A program made the translations under genes and the position numbers. Below, piece by piece: positions 1 to 51,375 of a stretch of 64,000 bases of DNA; positions within the stretch are counted from its first letter, which is position 1; each line of letters starts with the position of its first letter. The DNA is from Mobula hypostoma (Eukaryota). The stretch spans positions 2,666,001 through 2,730,000 of the forward strand of contig NC_086097.1 of NCBI RefSeq assembly GCF_963921235.1, in the 5' to 3' direction. The notes below the pieces were generated by a model. The model did not search any database. It saw only the letters and a program-made list of their open reading frames with translations, and had not been told where the DNA came from.

Positions 1-19
1 TTTTCTTCCTTCTCCCTTA

Positions 20-900
20 AATCCACTGGAGCCTCTCTAGTAAACCTACCTGCAAGAATATTTGTCCCCCTCCAGTTCAGATGTAAACTGCCCCACCGGA
101 ACAGGTCCCACCTTCCCTGGAAAACTGCCCAATTATCTATAAATCTGAAGCCCTCCCTCCTGCACCATGTCTTCAGCTACGTGTTGATCTGCGCTATCTT
201 ACTATTTCTAAATCCGCCTGCACGTGGCACTGGTAGCAATCCTGAGATTGCTATCCTGGAGGTTCTGTCCTTTACTTTGGCACCTAGCTCCCTAAACTCA
301 CCTTTCAGGACCTCCTCACTGTTCCTACCCACATCATTGGTCCCAACATGGACCACGACATCCGGCTGCTCACTCTCCCTCTTGAGAATACTGAGAACTC
401 GATCCGAGATATCGCGGACCTTGGCACCAGGGAGGCAACAGACCATCCGGGATTCTCAATCTCTTCCACAGAACCTCTCATCTGTCCCCCTAACTATCGA
501 ATCCCCTATCACTACTGCTCTCCTCTTTTCTCTCCTTCCCTTCTGAGCTGATGGTCCCGTCTCAGAGCCAGAGACGCAACCACTGCAATTTATCCCTGGT
601 AGGTCGTCCCCATCAACAGTATCCAAAATGATGTACTTATTGGTGGAACGGCCACAGGGGTGCTCTGCTCATTCTGTCTATTCCCCTTCCCTCTCCTGAC
701 AGTCACCTAGCTACCTGTCTCCTGACTTTTAGGGGTGACTATCTCCCTGTAACTCCTGTTTATTTCTGCTTCTGCCTCAGGAGTGATCTGAAGTTCATCC
801 AGCTCCAGTTCCAGTTCCCTAACTAGGTTTGTCAAGAGCTGCAGCTGGATGCACCTTTTACAGGTGTAGTCACATACTGCAAACGGAGCACTCAACTGCC
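20..900 (-). mobile_element. CR1 LINE ORF1 fragment (Cys-rich N-terminus plus SGNH esterase), decayed
   Basis: CKRCIQLQLL..VRELELELDEL; VIGDS; CLPGAKVRD; VVHVGTND. Homologous to the CR1 ORF1 at 27961-34820. Confidence 0.85.
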
Positions 901-22789: not shown

Positions 22790-23355
22790 ATACCTGGAGT
22801 ATTGTGTGCAGTTTTGGTCCCCTAATCTGAGTAAAGACATTCTTGCCATAGAGGGAGAACAAAGAAGGTTCACCAGATTAATTCCTGGGATGGCAGGACT
22901 TTCATATGATGAAAGACTGGATCAACTAGGCTTATACTCGCTGGAATTTAGAACACAGAGGGGGGGATCTTATTGAAACGTATAAAATTCTCAACGGATT
23001 GGACAGGCTCGATGCAGGAAGATTGTTCCCGATGTTGGGGAAGTCCAGAACGAGGGGTCACAGTTTAAGGATGAAGGAGAAGCCTTTTAGGACTGAGATG
23101 AGGAAAAACTTCTTCACACAGAGAATGGTGAATCTGTGGAATTCTCTGCCACAGGAAACAGTTGAGGCCAGTTCATTGGCTATATTTAAGAGGGAGTTAG
23201 ATAAGGCCCTTGTGGCTACGGGGATCAGGGGGTATGGAGGGAAGGCAGGTACAGGGTTCTGAGTTGGATGATAAGCCATGATCATACTAAATGGCAGTGC
23301 AGGCTCGAAGGGCCAAATGGCCTACTCTTGCACCTATTTTCTATGTTTCTATGTT
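22790..23355 (+). mobile_element. Young CR1 3' fragment
   Basis: Closely similar to the reverse complement of 24857-25418. Ends in tttctatg repeats. Confidence 0.9.
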
Positions 23356-24954
23356 TATTTCCATAGTTGACTGAAACATCCTAGTCATTTAACCATAATC
23401 TTCCCATTTCCAAGATACCATAAATTCCGGTGAATACGCCGAGAATCTGGCCCTAAATTTTGGTCCTAAAATAGGGGGTTGGCTTATACAGAGGGTGCCA
23501 ACTCTGTAAAAACGAATACATGGAAGACAGGTCGTATTTATTGGCTGTTTTTAAGTCAAATACAAAAGAAAGTACAAACGCATATGAAATCTACACAAAA
23601 GAAAAGATCTACAAAATACATTGTTTCTCAATTTACTTGCACACACTGTTGTCGTCAAACGTTCAGAGATTGAAACTCTCACACTCTTCATTATCTGACT
23701 CTCCGAAAATCGCGTCCCATTCTTCAGCAGTCACCATATCATCGTAAGGATTGTTAATTTCTGCTTCGACATCGTCATTTGCAGCTTTACTGGCTGCCAA
23801 ATCTCCATTGTCTTCTTCCCAAAGCAAGTGATCTTCAGTGCCATCCAAAGCATTGCCGATGCTGCACTTCCTGAAGGCCTTCACAAAGCACTCAGCGTTC
23901 ATTTCCTCCCACGACTGCGCTACCCACTCGCAAACTGTAGCTAGAGATGCGGCCCTCGTATTTCCCACTGGAGTGAATGACGGATTTCCAGGCATCATCC
24001 ATTCGTCCCACTGTCGAAGCATGAACTCTTTGAATGGTTTGTTTAAACTCACATCTAGTGGCTGGAGCATAGACGCCAAACCGCCGGGGATGATGCAATG
24101 TCCGTATTTTCAGCTTTCAGTGTTGTTTTTGTCTCACCTGACAAGTGTACTTTGAACGTGTCCCAGACAAGTAGCGACTTTTCCTTCCTGAAACCTTCTG
24201 GACGTTGACGCCACACCTCTTTAACCCACTTCAAGCAACCCGCTTCGTCCATCCAGCTGCGTTCTTGAACGTAAACAACAACACCCCGTGGGAATTTTTC
24301 TTTCTTTGGGAATGTTTTCCTCTTAAAAATCAGCATCGGTGGTAGTTTGGTCCCATCAGCCATACACGTTAACACAACAGTAAAATGTTGCTTCTCAAGT
24401 CCAGTTGGTTTGACAAGGACTGTTTTCTCCTCCTTCTGATTGACAGTGCGGTTGCCGGCAAAATCAAAGAACATTGGTGTCTCGTCCATGTTACCAATCA
24501 GTGAGAGCAGGTAAGAATGTGCCTTTCTATGCTTGATTACAAATGATTGGAAGGCCATAATCTTATTCTCAAAGTCGCTTAGCAACTTCTGAGCAATCTT
24601 TGTTTTTTGTCTCAACACAAGATCACGTCTATTCACAAATCGGGTGCACCAACTTCACGTAGCTTTGAAATTTTCGCTGACCTCACGGTGCTTTTCGGCC
24701 CATTTCAACTCTTGATCTCGAATCTTCTCTGGTAGCAACGTATCCAGACGGTCGCTGGTGATTCACCCACTCTAAAACTTTTTCTTCCAGTTCTGGCCAC
24801 TGGCATGTTTTCCTGCAGTTTGCACATTTCGTCTTTGGCATTTCCCTCAGCGTGTCATAGAAACATAGAAACATAGAAAATAGGTGCAGGAGTAGGCCAT
24901 TTGGCCCTTCGAGCCTGCACCGCCATTTATTATGATCATGGCTGATCATCCAAC

Positions 24955-27900
24955 TCAGAACCCAGCCTTCCCTCCATACCCCCTGACCCCTGTAGCCACA
25001 AGGGCCATATCTAACTTCCTTTTAAACATAGCTAATGAACTGGCCTCAACAGTTTGCTGTGGCAGAGAATTCCACAGATTCACCACTCTCTGTGTGAAGA
25101 AGTTTTTCCTAATCTCGGTCCTAAAAGGCTTCCCCTCTATCCTCAAACTATGACCCCTCGTTCTGGACCTCCCCAACATCGGGAACAATCTTCCCACATC
25201 TAGCCTGTCCAATCCCTTTAGGATCTTATACGTTTCAATCAGATCCCCCCTCAATCTTCTAAATTCCAACGAGTACAAGCCCAGTTCATCCAGTCTTTCT
25301 TCATATGAAAGACCTGCCATCCCAGGAATCAATCTGGTGAACCTTCTTTGTACTCCCTCTATGGCAAAGATGTCTTTCCTCAGATTAGGGGACCAAAACT
25401 GCACACAATACTCCAGGTGTGGTCTCACCAAGGCCTTGTACAACTGCAGTAGTACCTCCCTGCTCCTGTACTCGAATCCTCTCGCTATAAATGCCAGCAT
25501 ACCGTTCGCCTTTTTCACCGCCTGCTGTACCTGCATGCCCACTTTCAATGACTGGTGTATAATGACACCCAGGTCTCGTTGCACCTCCCCTTTTCCTAAT
25601 CGGCCACCATTCAGATAATAATCTGTTTTCCTATTTTTGCCACCAAAGTGGATAACTTCACATTTATCCACATTAAATTGCATCTGCCATGAGTTTGCCC
25701 ACTCACCCAACCTATCCAAGTCACCCTGCATCCTCTTAGCATCCTCCTCACTGCTAACACTGCCACCCAGCTTCGTGTCATCCGCAAACTTGGAGATGCT
25801 GCATTTAATTCCCTCATCCAAGTCATTAATATATATTGTAAACAACTGGGGTCCCAGCACTGAGCCTTGCGGTACCCCACTAGTCACCGCCTGCCATTCT
25901 GAAAAGGTCCCGTTTATTCCCACTCTTTGCTTCCTGTCTGCTAACCAATTCTCCACCCACACCAATACCTTACCCCCAATACCGTGTGCTTTAAGTTTGC
26001 ACACTAATCTCCTGTGTGGGACCTTGTCAAAAGCCTTTTGAAAATCCAAATATACCACATCCACTGGTTCTCCCCTATCCACTCTACTAGTTACATCCTC
26101 AAAAAAATTCTATGAGATTCGTCAGACATGATTTTCCTTTCACAAATCCATGCTGACTTTGTCCGATCATTTCACCGCTTTCCAAATGTGCTGTTATCAC
26201 ATCCTTGATAACTGACTCCAGCAGTTTCCCCACCACCGACGTTAGGCTAACCGGCCTATAATTCCCCGGTTTCTCTCTCCCTCCTTTTTTAAAAATTGAG
26301 GTTACATTAGCCACCCTCCAATCCTCAGGAACTAGTCCAGAATCTAACGAGTTTTGAAAAATTATCACTAATGCATCCACTATTTCTTGGGCTACTTCCT
26401 TAAGCACTCTGGGATGCAGACCATCTGGCCCTGGGGATTTATCTGCCTTCAATCCCTTCAATTTACCTAACACCACTTCCCTACTAACATGTATTTCACT
26501 CAGTTCCTCCATCTCACTGGACCCTCTGTCCCTTACTATTTCTGGAAGATTATTTATGTCCTCCTTAGTGAAGACAGAACCAAAGTAATTATTCAATTGG
26601 TCTGCCATGTCCTTGCTCCCCATAATCAATTCACCTGTTTCTGTCTGCAGGGGACCTACATTTGTCTTTACCAGTCTTTTCCTTTTTACATATCTATAAA
26701 AGCTTTTACAGTCAGTTTTTTTGTTCCCTGCCAGTTTTCTCTCATAATCTTGTTTCCCCTTCCTAATTAAGCCCTTTGTCCTCCTCTGCTGAACTCTGAA
26801 TTCCTCCCAGTCCTCAGGTGAGCCACTTTCTCTGGCTAATTTGTATGCTACTTCTTTGGAATTGATACTATCCCTAATTTCTCTTGTCAGCCACGGGTGC
26901 ACTACCTTCCTTGATTTATTCTTTTGCCAAACTGGGATGAACAATTGTTGTAGTTCATCCATGCAACCTTTAAATGCCTGCCATTGCATATCCACCGTCA
27001 ATCCTTTAAGTGTCATTTGCCAGTCTATCTTAGCTAATTCACGACTCATACCTTCAAAGTTACCCCTCTTTAAGTTCAGAACCTTTGTTTCTGAATTAAC
27101 TATGTCACTCTCCATGTTAATGAAGAATTCCACCATATTATGGTCACTCTTACCCAAGGGGCCTCTCACGACAAGATTGCTAATTAACCCTTCCTCATTG
27201 CTCAAAACCCAGTCCAGAATAGCCTGCTCTCCAGTCGGTTCCTCGACATGTTGGTTCAAAAAACCATCCCGCATACATTCCAAGAAATCCTCTTCCTCAG
27301 CACCTTTACCAATTTGGTTCACCCAATCTACATGTAGATTGAAGTCACCCATTATAACTGCTGTTCCTTTATTGCACACATTTCTAATTTCCTGTTTAAT
27401 ACCATCTCCGACTTCACTACTACTGTTAGGTGGCCTGTACACAACTCCCACCAGCGTCTTCTGCCCCTTAGTGTTACGCAGCTCTACCCATATCGATTCC
27501 ACATCTTCCCGGCTTATGTCCTTCCTTTCTATTGCGTTAATCTCTTTTTTAACCAGCAACGCCACCCCACCTCCCCTTCCTTCATGTCTATCCCTCCTGA
27601 ATATTGAATATCCCTGAACGTTGAGCTCCCATCCCTGGTCACCCTGGAGCCATGTCTCTGTGATCCCAACTATATCATAATCATTAATAACAATCTGCAC
27701 TTTCAATTCATCCACCTTATTACGAATGCTCCTTGCATTGACACATAAAGCCTTCAGGCGCTCTTTTACAACTCTCTTAGCCCTTTTTAATGCTTGCCCT
27801 GGATTTGTCGGCCTGCCACTTTTACTTTTCCCCTTTGTACTTTTTGCTTCTACGCTCACTTTACACCCCTCTGTCTCTCTGCACTGGTTCCCATCCCTCT

Positions 27901-27970
27901 GTTGTGAACTAACCTCCTCACACCTAGCCTCTTTAATTTGATTCCCACCCCCCAACCATTCTAGTTTAAA
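24955..27970 (-). pseudogene. CR1 ORF2 (APE endonuclease plus reverse transcriptase), one +1 frameshift
   Basis: NARSIRNK, GITETW, VIMGDFN, SDH, NYRPVSLTSV, YLDFQKAFDKVPH, GVPQGSVLGP, KFADD. The only lesion seen is a T7 run at 26101-26107. Confidence 0.93.
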
Positions 27971-28802
27971 GTCACCTCAGTAGCCCCTGCTAATCTCCCT
28001 GCCAGGATATTGGTCCCCCTAGGATTTAAGTGTAACCCGTCCTTTTTGTACAGGTCACGCCTGCACCAATAGAGGTCCCAATGATCCAAAAACTTGAATC
28101 CCTGCCCCCTGCTCCAATCCCTCAGCCACGCATTTATCCTCCACCTCATCGCATTCCTACTCTCACTGTCGCGTGGCACAGGCAGTAATCCTGAGATTAC
28201 TACCTTTGCGGTCCTTTTTCTCAACTCCCTTCCTAGCTCCCTACATTCTTCTTTCAGGACCTCATCCCTTTTCCTACCTATGTCATTGGTACCTATATGT
28301 ACCAGGACCTCTGGCTCTTCACCCTCCCACTTCAGGATATCTTGGACACGATCAGAAATATCCCGGACCCTGGCACCAGGGAGGCAAACTACCATCCGAG
28401 TCTCTGGACTGCGTCCACAGAATCGCCTATCTGACCCCCTTACTATCTTTCTTTTTAAATCTTTTTATTGAGTAAGTATACAAAAAAGGTAAGCCATATA
28501 AACATTAATACAATGTTAAAGTATAATAAAATTCCAAAAGATAACAATACCAAAAAGAAAATACTACAAACAATGTAATTTAAGCATAAGAAACCAAGAT
28601 AACATAATAGTATACTACATTTTATATATATCAATGGAAAAAAAAGAAAAAAAAACCCCCCAAAAAAAAACCCACCGTGCAACTAACTAAAAGCAAAGCA
28701 AAGCAATGAGCTAACTTGAAACCAAACAGAGTTAAACTTAAAATCACGTCCTCAATCCCGACCTCCATTAAAAACAGTGAAAAAAAACAAGAAGGGTAAA
28801 TA

Positions 28803-31800
28803 TTACATTAAATGAAAATATCGAATAAAAGGTCCCCAAATCTGTTCAAATTTAAATGAAGAATCATAAAGGTTACTTCTAATTTTCTCCAAATTCAAAC
28901 ATAAAATCGTCTGAGAAAACCAAAAAAAGGTAGTTGGAGCATTAAGCTCTTTCCAATGTTGTAAAATACATCTTTTCGCCATTAAAGTAAGAAATGCAAT
29001 CATTCTACGGGCTGAAGGGGAAAGATTACTAGAAATTTTAGGTAGTCCAAAGATAGCAGTAATAGGGTGAGGAGAGATATCTATATTTAATACCTTAGAA
29101 ATAATATTGAAAATATCTCTCCAAAAAGTTTCCAAAGTAGGGCAAGACCAAAACATATGAGTTAAAGAGGCTATCTGCCCCGAACATCTATCACAGAAAG
29201 GATTAATATGCGAGTAAAAACGCGCTAACTTATCTTTGGACATATGTGCTCTATGAACCACTTTAAATTGAATTAGGGAATGTTTAGCACAAATAGAGGA
29301 AGTATTAACTAATTGTAAAATCTGCCCCCAATCATCCACAGAAATGGTAAGCCCCAATTCCTGTTCCCAATCTACCCTAATCTTATCAAATGGAGCTTTC
29401 CTAAGTTTCATAATAATATTATAAATCATAGCCGATGCACCGTTCTGACATGGATTAAGGTTAATTATCGAATCTAAAATATATGTAGGAGGAAGCATTG
29501 GAAAGGAAGAAAGTATAGTACTTAGGAAATTTCTAACTTGTAAATATCTAAAAAAATGTATTCTTGATAAGTTATATTTATTAGATAATTGTTCAAAAGA
29601 CATAAGGGAACCATCTAAAAATAAATCCAAAAACTGTAAAATACCCTTAGTCTTCCAAGTTTGAAAAGCACGATCCGTAAAAGAGGGAGGAAAAAATATG
29701 TTACCTAAAATAGGAATCGCTAACCCGAATTGATTAAGATCAAAAAATTTTCTGAATTGAAACCAAATGCGCAAAGCATATTTAACTATCGGGTTAGAGA
29801 CCTGCTTAAGACGTTTCGAATCAAAAGGAAGAGAGGAGCCTAAAATAGAACCAAGTGTATAACCCTGAACAGATTGTAATTCCAATGCTACCCATTTAGG
29901 AATAGATAGTATGTCCTGGTCAAGTAACCAAAATTTCATATGACGAATATTAATAGCCCAATAATAAAATCTAAAATTAGGTAATGCTAAACCTCCATCT
30001 CTCTTAGCTTTCTGTAAATGTATTTTACCCAGTCTCGGATTCTTATTCTGCCAAATAAATGAAGAAATTTTAGAGTCAACTTTATCAAAAAAAGATTTAG
30101 GAACGAAAATTGGTAATGCCTGAAACACATATAAAAATTTTGGCAAAAAAAACATCTTAACTGCATTAATACGACCAATCAAAGTTAAATATAAGGGAAA
30201 CCATTTAGATGAAAGTTGAGTAATATGGTCTATTAATGGTAAAAAGTTAGTCTTAAATAAATCTTTGTGTTTACAAGTAATTTTAATCCCAAGATATGAA
30301 AAGTAATTATTAATCAATTTAAATGGAAATTTATAATATAAGGGAAGATGTTTATTAATCGGAAAAAGTTCACTCTTACTAAGATTTAATTTATAACCTG
30401 AGAAAAGACCAAATTGTGCTAATAACTCTAAAACAGCAGAAATGGATCTCTCAGGATTAGAAATATATAAAAGTAAATCATCAGCATAGAGTGATAATTT
30501 ATGGGACTTTAATCCCCGAGTTATCCCAGTAATATTTGAAGATTCTCGAATAGCAATTGCAAGAGGTTCTAATGCAATATCAAATAATAGGGGACTAAGA
30601 GGACAGCCTTGTCGAGTACCACGAAAGAGAGGAAAAAAAGGTGAGTTTAAAGAGTTAGTACGAACCGAGGCCACAGGGGAGTGATATAACAGTTTAATCC
30701 AGGATATAAATTTCAAGCTAAAATTAAACATTTCAAGCACCTTAAATAAATAAGGCCATTCTACTCTATCAAAAGCTTTCTCGGCATCTAAAGAAATAAC
30801 ACACTCAGGAACATTTTGTGAGGGAGTATAAACGATATTTAACAATGTACGAATATTATAAAAAGAGTAACGACCTTTAATAAAACCCGTTTGGTCTTCC
30901 GAAATAATAGAAGGAAGTACTTTTTCTAGTCTATTTGCTAATAACTTAGAAAAAACTTTAGAGTCAACATGTAATAAAGATATTGGTCTATAAGATGCAC
31001 ATTGAGCAGGGTCTTTATCCTTCTTTAGTATTAGAGAAATTGATGCTCTATTAAAAGATTCAGGAAGTTTACCAAGTTTCAAAGAAGCCTCAAAAACCTT
31101 ACAGAGCTAAGGAATCAATAAAGAAGCAAAACATTTATAAAATTCAACGGTAAACCCATCAGGGCCAGGAGCTTTCCCCAGATTCATAGAAAAAATAACA
31201 TTCTTAATCTCATCCATTGTAATGGAAGTATCTAATAAAGAAGACATATCCTGTGAAATCTGAGGGAAGTCTAACTTATCTAAAAAATCATTCATATATT
31301 TAGAATCTCGAGGAGACTCTGATTGATATAAAGAAGAATAAAAATCACAAAAGGTTTGATTAATCCCCACATGATCCAATATCAATCGATCATTTTGGTT
31401 ATAAATCTGATTGATTTGAGATTTAACATAATTAGATTTCAATTGATTAGCCAGCAGCTTGCCAATTTTGTCACTGTGAACATAAAAGTCACTTCTTGTT
31501 TTCTTTAATTGGTTTACAATCGAGGACGAGAGTAGTAAACTGTGTTCCATTTGAAGTTCAGTTCTTTGTTTGTATAACTCCTCAGAAGGAGCCATAACAT
31601 ATTTCTTATCAATTTCTTTAATCTTGTCCACAATTGCCATCTCCTCCTGCTTCTGTTTCTTCCTCAAAGCAACGGAATACGAAATAATCTGACCCCGAAT
31701 ATAGGCTTTAAAAGTGTCCCAAAGAGTGTTAACCGAAATATCTTCTGTATGGTTAATTGTAAAAAAAAGCTCAATCTGTTCATTCATAAAATTAACAAAG

Positions 31801-48809: not shown

Positions 48810-51375
48810 ATCTGTGAAGATAGGAATAGAATGAGGTGGCAGATAAATGCATGGCTGAAGAATTGGAGTAGGGGACAGGGATTCAGATTTCTGGATAATT
48901 GGGACCAATTCTGGGGCAGGTGGGACCTGTACAAAAAGAGACTTTTGCGGGTAGAGTTACAAGAGCTGCTGGGAGTGGTATAAACTAATATGGCAGGGGG
49001 ATGGGAACCAGAATAATAGAGCTGAGGATGAGCCAGCAGGTTTGCAAGCAGATGTTGGGTAGAACATGAATGGTCAGGAAGGACAAGCCAATGACTGGGT
49101 CATTGCAGACAGAGGCAAAATTCAAAAGGGCGAAAATGGAGGACTGGAGATGCTGTATTTAAAATGTGCGTAGCATTTGGAATAAGGTGGACAAACTACT
49201 GGCGTAATTAGAGACTGGTTGGTATGACGTTGTGGGGGGCATCACTGAGTCGAGGCTGAAAGAAGGCCATTGTTGGGAGTTCAACATCAAAGGATATACT
49301 TTGATGTTAGGACAGGCAGGAAGGCATAGGTGGTGGTGTGGCTCTGTTGACACGAGATAGAATTACATCTTTTAGAAAGAGGTGATGTAGGGTCAGGGAA
49401 CGTTGAATTTTTGTGGGTGGAGTTTAGAGTAATGTCACAAATGATGTAATGGGGGACTTCAATATGGGAAGGTATTGGGAAAATCAGATTGATGTCAGAT
49501 CACAAGAGAGAGAATTTGTTGAATGCCCATGAGATGGCTTTTTAGAGGAGCTTATGGTTGAGCCTACTTGGGGAAAGGCCATCTTGAACTGGCTATTTGG
49601 AACCAGCTTGAAACCCTGAAGAGGCAGTGATCAGAATATATTGAATTCGTACTGCAAGTTGAGAGGGAGAAGCACAAATCACATCAGTATTGCAAAGGAA
49701 TAAAGGAATTAGAGGCATGAGAGAGGAGTTTGCCCAGGTGGATTGAAGGAGGGTACTGGCGGGGATGATTGCACAGCAGAGATAGCTGAAGTTTCTGGGG
49801 ATAGTTCAGAAGGTGCAGGATAGATATGTCTCACAGATGAAGTAGTTCTCAAAAGGCAGAGGTAGGCAACCATGGCAGACTCGGGAAGGTGAGGACTGCA
49901 TAAAAGCCAAGGAAAGGGCATATGAGGTAGCAAAAGTGAGCGGAAAGTTGGATAATTGGGAAGTTTTTAAAATCCAACAAAAGCCAACTTTAAAAAAAAA
50001 GCTCTTAAGAAGGAAAGAGATGAAATAAGAGGGCAAACCTGCCAATATTATAAAGCAGGATACTAAAAGATTTTTCAGTTTGTATAAAGAATAAAAAGGA
50101 AGTGGGTATTGATATTGAGCCACTGCAAAATGATGCTGGTGAGGTAGGAATGGGTACCAAAGAAATGGCAGGTAAATTTAGTGGGTACTTTGCATCAGTC
50201 TTCACAGTGGAAGATACTAGCAGTGCGCCAGAGGTCCCTGAGTGTCAAGGAGCAGTGAGTGCCATTGCTATTACAAAAGAAGTGCTAGGCAAACTCAAAG
50301 GTCTTAAAGAGGGTGTGGGATATGTCACCTGGACAAGATGAACTGCATCCCAGAGTCCCGAGAGAGGTTGCTGAAGAGGTAACAGATGCACTGGTCATGA
50401 TCTTTTAAGAATCACTTGATCCCAGAGGACTGGAAAATTGCAAATCACTCCACTTTTTAAGAAGGGAGAAAGGCAAAAGAAAGGAAATTATAGGCCAGTT
50501 AGCCTAATCTCATAGGTTGGGAAAGTGTTGGAGTTTATTATGAAGGATGAGGTTTTGGGGTACTTGGAGACTAATGATAAAATAAGTCAAAGTCAACATG
50601 GTTTCTATCAAGGGAAATCTTGCCTGACAAACCTGTTCAGTTCTTCAAGGAAGTAACAAGCAGGATGGACAAAGGAGAGGCAGTGGATGTCATTTACGTG
50701 GATTTTCAGAAGGCATTTGATAAGGTGCCACTCAAGGCTGTTTAACAAGTAAAAAGTCCTATGGCATTACGGAATAGATACTGGCATGGATAGAGGAATG
50801 GCTGAAAGGCAGGAGGCAGTGAGTGAAAATAAAGGGGGCCTTTTCTGGTTGGCTGTCAGTGACTAGTGGTGTTCCTCAGGGGTCGGTATTGGGACCAATA
50901 CTTTTCACATTGTTTGTCACTGATTTAGATAATGGAATTGATGGCTTTGTGGCAAAGTCTGCGGATGATATTATGATGGGTGGAGGGGTAGGTAATGCTG
51001 AGGAAGCAATGTGATTGCAGCAGGACTTAGACAAATTGGAAGAACGGGCAAAAAAAGTGGCAGATGGAATAGTGGTGGGAAATGTATGATAATGCATTTT
51101 GATAAAAAGAACAATAGTGAAGACTTCCCTAAATGGGGAGAAAATTCAAATATCAGAGGTGCAGAGAGACTTAACAGTCCTCGTGCAAGGCTCCCAGAAG
51201 GTTAATTTACAGGTCGAGTCTATGGTAAAGAATGCAAACACAATGTTGGCATTATTTCAAGGGGATTAGAATATAAAAACAAGGAGATAATGCTGAGCCT
51301 TTAAGACAATACTCAGGCCGCACTTGTCAACACTTTACTGCCCCATATCTCAGAAAGGATGTGTTGTCAGTAGAG
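48810..51375 (+). mobile_element. CR1 LINE (ORF1 end through RT), decayed
   Basis: INAWLKNWSRGQGFRFLDNWD, YFASVFT, GVPQGSVLGP. Confidence 0.88.

Follow-up and report, generated by a model that had tools for sequence, protein, structure and literature searches.

Here, we examined the junction between the two open reading frames (ORFs) of a long interspersed nuclear element (LINE) carried by a stretch of 64,000 nucleotides of the Mobula hypostoma genome (NCBI RefSeq assembly GCF_963921235.1, contig NC_086097.1, positions 2,666,001 to 2,730,000 of the forward strand), hereafter the window, to which all coordinates refer. Our findings favor a model where a probable programmed -1 ribosomal frameshift joins ORF1 to an ORF2 without a start codon. 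The element lies on the minus strand and is a 5'-truncated, dead copy. Its ORF1 frame (28464..27961, -) retains the C-terminal 167 residues (27964..28464, -), which form a GDSL/SGNH esterase domain (Pfam PF13472, E=8.8e-15), the closest solved structure being PDB 4c1b, 'ORF1-encoded protein' (E=3.9e-39, profile A2). The N-terminal part of ORF2 (26099..27976, -) runs from a linker through an apurinic-type endonuclease into the reverse transcriptase (RT) (Pfam PF03372, PF14529, and PF00078); the frame is broken near 26100-26109, and the remainder, with the rest of the RT and the C-terminal part, continues in another frame (24955..26109, -). An esterase-type ORF1, with an apurinic-type endonuclease and then an RT in ORF2, is a combination expected of a CR1-clade LINE, and from its sequence the element classes as a CR1-like LINE in the broad sense (CR1/L2 esterase-type; type IV of PMC4120745). 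In the classification given in that source, the type IV (esterase) ORF1 occurs in CR1 subgroup 7 and L2 subgroup 9 (PMC4120745). The closest named relatives of the window ORF1 are elasmobranch, the best being P0175, from Mobula hypostoma itself (311 amino acids, 96% identical). Full-length ORF1 proteins (ORF1p) of close relatives measure ~305-315 amino acids, and Cys-rich and coiled-coil N-terminal parts are visible in the ORF1 of a distant relative, L001.

Read on the minus strand, the junction runs ...GAG GTG ACT TTA AAC TAG AATGGTT GGGGGG TGGG AATC... The slippery heptamer T_TTA_AAC (27970-27964, -) stands in the X_XXY_YYZ phase of ORF1, and the ORF1 stop TAG (27963-27961, -) abuts its 3' side; the same TAG is found in 13/13 distant relatives and in the 21 readable loci of a wider search. 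ORF2 lies one base back, in the -1 frame relative to ORF1, and the two frames overlap. Upstream, the -1 frame is closed by a TGA (27979-27977, -), the 5' limit of the shift window; the frame opens 6 nt before the heptamer, passage from ORF1 to ORF2 is possible within 13 nt only, and the heptamer is the sole slippery sequence inside these 13 nt. Past the heptamer, the ORF2 frame offers its first ATG at codon 206, which falls within the endonuclease and beyond the first conserved motifs of that domain. An ATG just beyond the stop (27959-27957, -) is in the third frame and opens a mini-ORF of 8 codons (27933..27959, -); it belongs to the ray family only, distant relatives having no ATG there. A G-rich tract begins 6 nt past the heptamer, and its G6 core (27953-27948, -), the sole conserved downstream feature, starts exactly 10 nt past it. 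A preliminary description of this DNA, made from the letters and the open frames, had proposed a candidate -1 frameshift, and direct reading recovers each of its grounds: the ACT TTA AAC TAG ending with its heptamer in phase, the one-base offset that lets a -1 slip in 28464..27961 enter 27976..26099, the lack of an AUG in ORF2 before the endonuclease, the out-of-frame AUG past the stop that closes after 8 codons (27959..27933), and the G-rich tract 6 nt downstream.

The two decayed copies of the same layout that the preliminary description had singled out are also present in the window. One (2635-2612, -; 76% identical) reads TTTAAAT TAG, 7 nt, and G7, with several frame breaks that leave the phase unreadable from that copy alone. 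In the other (48979-49000, +), which reads T ATA AAC TAA, 7 nt, and G5, the heptamer is mutated and the G-run again begins 10 nt after the heptamer position. A further copy at 500..18 (57% identical in ORF1) reads TTTAAG, runs to the window end without meeting a stop, and is uninformative on the junction.

The state of the family was read from contigs of four public runs. Two are DNA runs, each of a different organism, and another comes from a third organism; the remaining one, X9, is RNA by guess only and, as contigs do not reveal expression level, is not used as evidence of transcription. Some 19,000 contigs (8818 in X1, 9696 in X5, 12 in X13, and 578 in X9) were aligned on 27800-28120 at a likeness of at least 80%, and variants with a share of at least 5% were considered. 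Among the variants listed, none of either kind, base or indel, falls within 27929-27985 in any of the four runs, and the majority state of the family thus comprises heptamer and TAG as well as the out-of-frame ATG and the run of six Gs. The flanks, by contrast, vary at no fewer than 11 places in 27800-27928 and no fewer than 24 in 27986-28120; at this density (at least 35 places in 264 nt) ~7.6 variable places would be expected in the 57 nt of the invariant block, sites not being independent. Indels among the variants listed occur at 28021 and 28027 only. Two arrangements raised in the preliminary description as adverse to a frameshift, a consensus with one G fewer in the run and a heptamer that is not conserved, are therefore not those of the family: the G-run shows no indel among the variants listed, and the heptamer is fixed while neighboring columns vary. 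For other subfamilies the alignment breaks off within the ORF1 tail, and the consensus of their loose ends (place 27995; X1/X5 and X13) nonetheless closes with TTTAAA in an unchanged register, in X13 with a different tail.

Relatives well outside the ray family carry the same junction. A profile of ORF1 proteins (A2) retrieved three metagenome contigs (L001-L003) and ten contigs (L005-L014) in assemblies labelled as bacterial metagenome-assembled genomes (MAGs); L004, a weak esterase-like match without the motif, was left out. Their ORF1 is 31-36% identical to that of the window, and they form two subfamilies with 64% identity between them. At the end of ORF1, xxT TTA AAC TAG is found in 13/13 of these loci, with G6 starting exactly 10 nt past the heptamer in 12/13, and ORF2 lies at -1 in 8 of the 11 loci where its frame could be assessed. 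Ten alignment columns, TTTAAACTAG, are invariant, flanked on either side by columns that vary, between the subfamilies too; after the heptamer the relatives read TAG ATTCG, TAG TTTCG, or TAG TTGGG. No ATG was found between the stop and the endonuclease in the distant relatives examined, where the first ORF2-frame ATG is codon 53-58, after the conserved CLNARS-type motif; thus, the ATG past the stop is specific to the lineage of the window copy. A wider search of assemblies G001-G003 yielded 16 distinct G001 contigs with a readable junction, all of which (16/16) keep the heptamer and the TAG; the G-run has decayed in 4/16, with the heptamer intact there. Since the motif does not vary among thousands of related contigs and recurs in distant relatives, the heptamer arrangement is more than a chance occurrence.

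Several side observations concern these contigs. In decayed copies (L035, G001:C645; L010/L022; L029; L032), the G-run drifts (G11, G4, T-interrupted) with heptamer and TAG intact, and homopolymer instability is visible in dead copies. The assemblies labelled as bacterial MAGs hold many eukaryotic LINE copies, among them a 17.8-Mb 'Metamycoplasmataceae' (21 profile matches at E<=1e-5), Gammaproteobacteria, and Methylococcales, and the contigs L005-L014 and L015-L037 (G001-G003) look like host DNA binned with bacteria. Scans of viral contigs with ORF2, alignment A3, and alignment A2 as queries returned no relative. L033 (G001:C129) is a different esterase-bearing element, whose frame runs more than 60 codons past the esterase domain, without an LN-stop, to the contig end; it may be a single-ORF or differently organized relative.

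A heptamer of this kind directly followed by the stop leaves a footprint in the protein, given that ORF1p must then end in Leu-Asn. We collected 174 ORF1 homologues, of which 126 reach the end of the esterase profile, and added 34 further, longer ones (208 in total). The ending -LN is seen in 78/126 of those reaching the domain end and in 28/34 of the longer ones; overall, 108 of the 208 proteins share it (one of the 108 through a truncation artefact), spread over 32 clusters of otherwise differing tails of varied lengths, although these counts carry shared ancestry and are not independent events. The residue before LN can have a U-ending codon in 107/108. Retention of the last two residues across wholly changed tails is not the behavior of a free protein C-terminus. 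In every lineage with DNA, the final Leu is encoded by TTA with a T before it, whose shares in these ORFs are 12-56% of the Leu codons for TTA and 19-28% of third positions for T; with both in the minority, constraint at the protein level alone would not keep xxT TTA AAC in each lineage. An ending in N is more frequent still (94/126), and includes -GN in 10/126, nine of them -QGN, and -EN in 2/126, the last of which would fit G_GAA_AAC. The -QGN ending is compatible with CAG GGA AAC, that is, with a putative G_GGA_AAC heptamer, likewise canonical, suggested by protein ends. Finally, four collected proteins, from mutated copies or gene models, read through the junction into the ORF2 frame as ...FKL...; this implies TTT AAA CTN, and hence that those four copies, too, carry the heptamer, here decoded in the -1 frame.

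Some of the collected records are of interest in themselves. P0016, a protein of 122 amino acids that UniRef lists as an SGNH/GDSL hydrolase from Proteus mirabilis, shares 63% identity with ORF1 of the ray LINE and continues into the FKL... reading; it is probably elasmobranch DNA contaminating a bacterial record. P0015, P0017, P0185, P0200, and P0205 are annotated ray and sawfish gene models that contain LINE ORF1 segments, under names such as transmembrane protein 204, 40S ribosomal protein S24 isoform X2, hydroxyacid oxidase 2 isoform X1, and V-set and immunoglobulin domain-containing protein 10-like 2, and are likely chimeric gene predictions.

Family contigs, distant relatives, and protein ends thus all lend support to the candidate frameshift of the preliminary description. 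We suggest, at a probability of about 0.7, that programmed -1 frameshifting yields an ORF1p-ORF2p fusion. Under this model, most ribosomes would decode ...ACU UUA AAC and stop at the UAG, releasing free ORF1p with its coiled-coil/zinc-finger and esterase parts. A minority would slip back one base on U_UUA_AAC, the P-site tRNA moving from UUA to UUU and the A-site tRNA from AAC to AAA, and would go on reading UUU AAA CUA G... in the ORF2 frame. The product would be a minor, Gag-Pol-like ORF1p-ORF2p fusion bearing endonuclease and RT. The abutting UAG and the G6 at its fixed 10 nt probably assist the slip.

As to what might stimulate it, the features conserved downstream at the junction are the bare G6 at a fixed 10 nt and the abutting UAG, and the G6 run is regarded as a candidate stimulator. 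Two structural candidates were tried and rejected: a stable downstream hairpin, as minimum free energy (MFE) was no better than that of shuffled sequences, and a conserved G-quadruplex, as GG-TT-G6-T-GGG occurs in the ray family only and the flanking tracts are family-specific. The L001 and L008 families keep G6 with no fourth G-tract nearby, and L008/L009 have GGG two bases before G6. The G-quadruplex or pseudoknot that the preliminary description had envisaged as stimulator was not borne out, only G6 being conserved, and neither a stable fold nor a pairing partner being found by MFE folding and pairing scans.

Other explanations of the junction deserve consideration. The window copy is dead, truncated at its 5' end and with ORF2 broken near 26100-26109, and removal of one G would bring the ATG past the stop into the ORF2 frame; conceivably, this ATG is the normal start of ORF2, moved out of frame by an indel in the run, and the heptamer arose by chance. 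This we find hardly credible, given that no G-run indel reaches 5% among the variants listed from the four runs, at word depths of ~9x10^5, and that distant relatives share G6 and heptamer without any ATG. A more substantial proposal is that ORF2 is translated by termination-dependent reinitiation, or by other AUG-independent initiation after the UAG, with UUUAAAC-UAG-N7-G6 as a reinitiation or tethering signal and the phase of the heptamer incidental. The stop conserved right at the junction, the conserved G-rich element just past it, and the failure to find a stimulatory structure all agree with it, and reviews, in their passages on the subject, describe LINE ORF2 initiation as an unsettled matter and refer to reinitiation in SART1, where it has been shown, and in human L1, for which it has been proposed (PMC3708506, PMC3894237). 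Yet no ORF2-frame ATG lies near the stop in any lineage, the ATG of the window family being out of frame and unconserved, and the SART1-type arrangement, an ORF2-frame AUG overlapping or adjoining the ORF1 stop, is found neither in the window nor in the relatives. Reinitiation also leaves unexplained why a canonical heptamer, made of the last two codons and the preceding third base, stays in phase across 32 tail contexts, and why the ending of a second group, -QGN, fits another canonical heptamer. On balance, we consider it unlikely.

The slip could also involve a single tRNA. With the UAG slowly decoded in the A site, the P-site tRNA-Asn would move from AAC to AAA, such that the UUU would matter less and the stop would be the main stimulator; a slowly decoded stop does help slippage at some frameshift sites. 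The UAG stands right after the heptamer in every intact copy seen, 94/126 ORF1p have N as their last residue irrespective of the one before (-EN, -SN, and -KN among them), and no 3' structure was found, all of which suits such a slip. The strong preference for L (UUA) or G (GGA) ahead of the N, together with a U- or G-compatible residue earlier, fits tandem slippage better, and we judge the single-tRNA version improbable; in any case, it is a sub-mechanism of the -1 frameshift proposed above rather than a true alternative to it.

Programmed -1 frameshifting has in turn to contend with several points that weigh against it or narrow its basis. No stable 3' structure was detected in ~130 nt from the heptamer in three lineages (MFE z = -0.54, -0.09, and +0.41 against shuffles), nor, in five sequences scanned over 250 nt of downstream and 200 nt of upstream sequence, a pairing partner of the G-run exceeding shuffled controls (z between -1.74 and +1.47); these negatives cover MFE folds and pairing scans, no dedicated pseudoknot program having been run. 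A G-run at 10 nt slightly exceeds the usual 5-9 nt spacer. In 3 of the 11 assessable relatives ORF2 is in another frame (0, 0, and +1); these copies have indels, and the displacement is read as decay. The distant relatives at the DNA level amount to two related families only, the wider breadth coming from protein C-termini of common descent, which do not count as independent. For -QGN, the putative G_GGA_AAC comes from protein ends: a scan of genome contigs with alignment A4 gave no relative, and a search of G001-G003 with A3 returned L001-type copies and the different element L033 only. Lastly, L1 ORF2 has been reported, in work cited in PMC3708506, to be translated by an unconventional route without frameshifting, which means that LINEs have other options.

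With these points in mind, the frameshift proposed for the window family may be extended, tentatively and with some doubt, to esterase-type CR1-like LINEs at large. These would generally make the fusion by a -1 shift, with the site swapped among clades and the ...A_AAC-stop core kept (U_UUA_AAC, G_GGA_AAC, possibly G_GAA_AAC or A_AAA_AAC). The stimulator would then be a signal of a new kind, the abutting UAG plus an unstructured G6 at a fixed 10 nt, acting via the ribosome or a bound factor and not through RNA structure.

The remaining features of the locus concern the ends of the copy and its neighbors. The 3' untranslated region (24856..24954, -) holds, by direct reading, an inverted repeat, GGTGCAGG...CCTGCACC, and then three TTTCTATG units at the end (~24921-24856), so that the element ends in a hairpin and short tandem octamer units in place of poly(A). 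The inverted repeat, a perfect one of 8 bp at 24883-24921 (-) just before the TTTCTATG units, is a candidate RT-recognition hairpin, as in stringent LINEs; we take an inverted repeat with TTTCTATG tandem units at the 3' end to be typical of CR1. At its other end, ORF1 is cut at ~28464, at the tail of another retroelement. Directly upstream, at 28803-31106 (-), a different LINE is represented by a long open frame with an RT (767 amino acids, ~23% identical to the CR1 ORF2). Its AT-rich tail (28470-28800) stops where the CR1 copy starts, as would be seen if the insertions were nested or adjacent. On the 3' side, between the CR1 copy and another CR1 3' fragment at 22791-23262 (+), a pair of adjoining open frames (148 and 199 amino acids; 23663-24654, -) resembles the DDE transposase of a DNA transposon.

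Frameshifting by -1 at X_XXY_YYZ is textbook knowledge for retroviruses, long terminal repeat (LTR) elements, and coronaviruses. The window junction is like the Gag-Pol systems and coronaviruses in having such a heptamer at the end of the upstream ORF, a startless polymerase ORF at -1, and an expected minor fusion, and the heptamer of coronavirus ORF1a/1b, U_UUA_AAC, is identical. It differs from them in that the host is a non-LTR LINE with an esterase-type ORF1p in place of Gag upstream, the stop abuts the heptamer, and a bare G6 at 10 nt is seen where no pseudoknot or hairpin was found. In plant sites of the luteovirus/dianthovirus type, the 0-frame stop directly follows the heptamer, as here, and arterivirus and cardiovirus sites, with unstructured, protein-dependent stimulators 10-15 nt downstream, are similar in having a short linear motif at ~10 nt and no adjacent structure; the stimulators of these plant-virus, arterivirus, and cardiovirus sites are, unlike G6 with no known partner, C-rich motifs, stem-loops to which viral proteins bind, or long-range pairing. 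Linear stimulators 12-15 nt away that act with trans-factors are described in a recoding review, which also covers the frameshift classes of retroviruses, LTR retrotransposons, derived genes (PEG10, G_GGA_AAC), and coronavirus ORF1a/1b, and in its relevant passages names HeT-A, TART, and L1 alone among non-LTR elements (PMC5009743).

Among LINEs, the -1 shift between ORFs has a precedent in the Dictyostelium elements TRE5-A and TRE3-A, which need it for ORF2 translation (PMC5911963). These are likewise APE-type LINEs, but of another clade, host, and ORF1 type, and the account of them in that paper, in the part that bears on the shift, states no conserved heptamer or host breadth (PMC5911963). 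In SART1 (UAAUG) and human L1, too, a bicistronic LINE RNA makes ORF2 expression hinge on the ORF1 stop, as the passages on their translation describe (PMC3708506, PMC3894237); theirs is, however, a separate ORF2p, and in SART1 an in-frame AUG overlaps the stop, whereas here there is no AUG and the frames overlap on the heptamer. A full-text literature search gave no report of a frameshift site in CR1/L2 esterase LINEs, although an earlier mention in the founding esterase-ORF1 work is possible. The term 'frameshift' does not appear in the pertinent parts of reviews on LINE translation and esterase ORF1 (PMC3894237, PMC3905857, PMC4120745, PMC2881922), nor is a frameshift site at the CR1 junction mentioned in the corresponding parts of PMC1947958, PMC4255032, PMC5408684, PMC4700185, and PMC11835228. 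In the words of a 2013 review, in its passage on the matter, translation of the second LINE ORF is 'an interesting - and important - question' (PMC3894237). What seems new here, as a strong candidate, is a known kind of recoding signal in an element class where the translation of ORF2 is an open question, with a stimulator that is apparently unusual.

CR1-like esterase-type LINEs rank with the most abundant transposons in many vertebrates, and are present also in invertebrate-like hosts. A deeply conserved canonical -1 site would answer how ORF2 is translated in one large group of LINEs, in a form that is easily tested, and would provide a natural eukaryotic frameshift site seemingly working without an obvious RNA structure. 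In annotation, the ORF2 of these elements would be called as a -1 fusion, and not from an internal ATG. If frameshifting does take place, its efficiency would set the ORF1p:ORF2p ratio, as in retroviruses, and the esterase ORF1p would be delivered covalently with ORF2p, which bears on cis-preference and on the assembly of the ribonucleoprotein particle in these elements.

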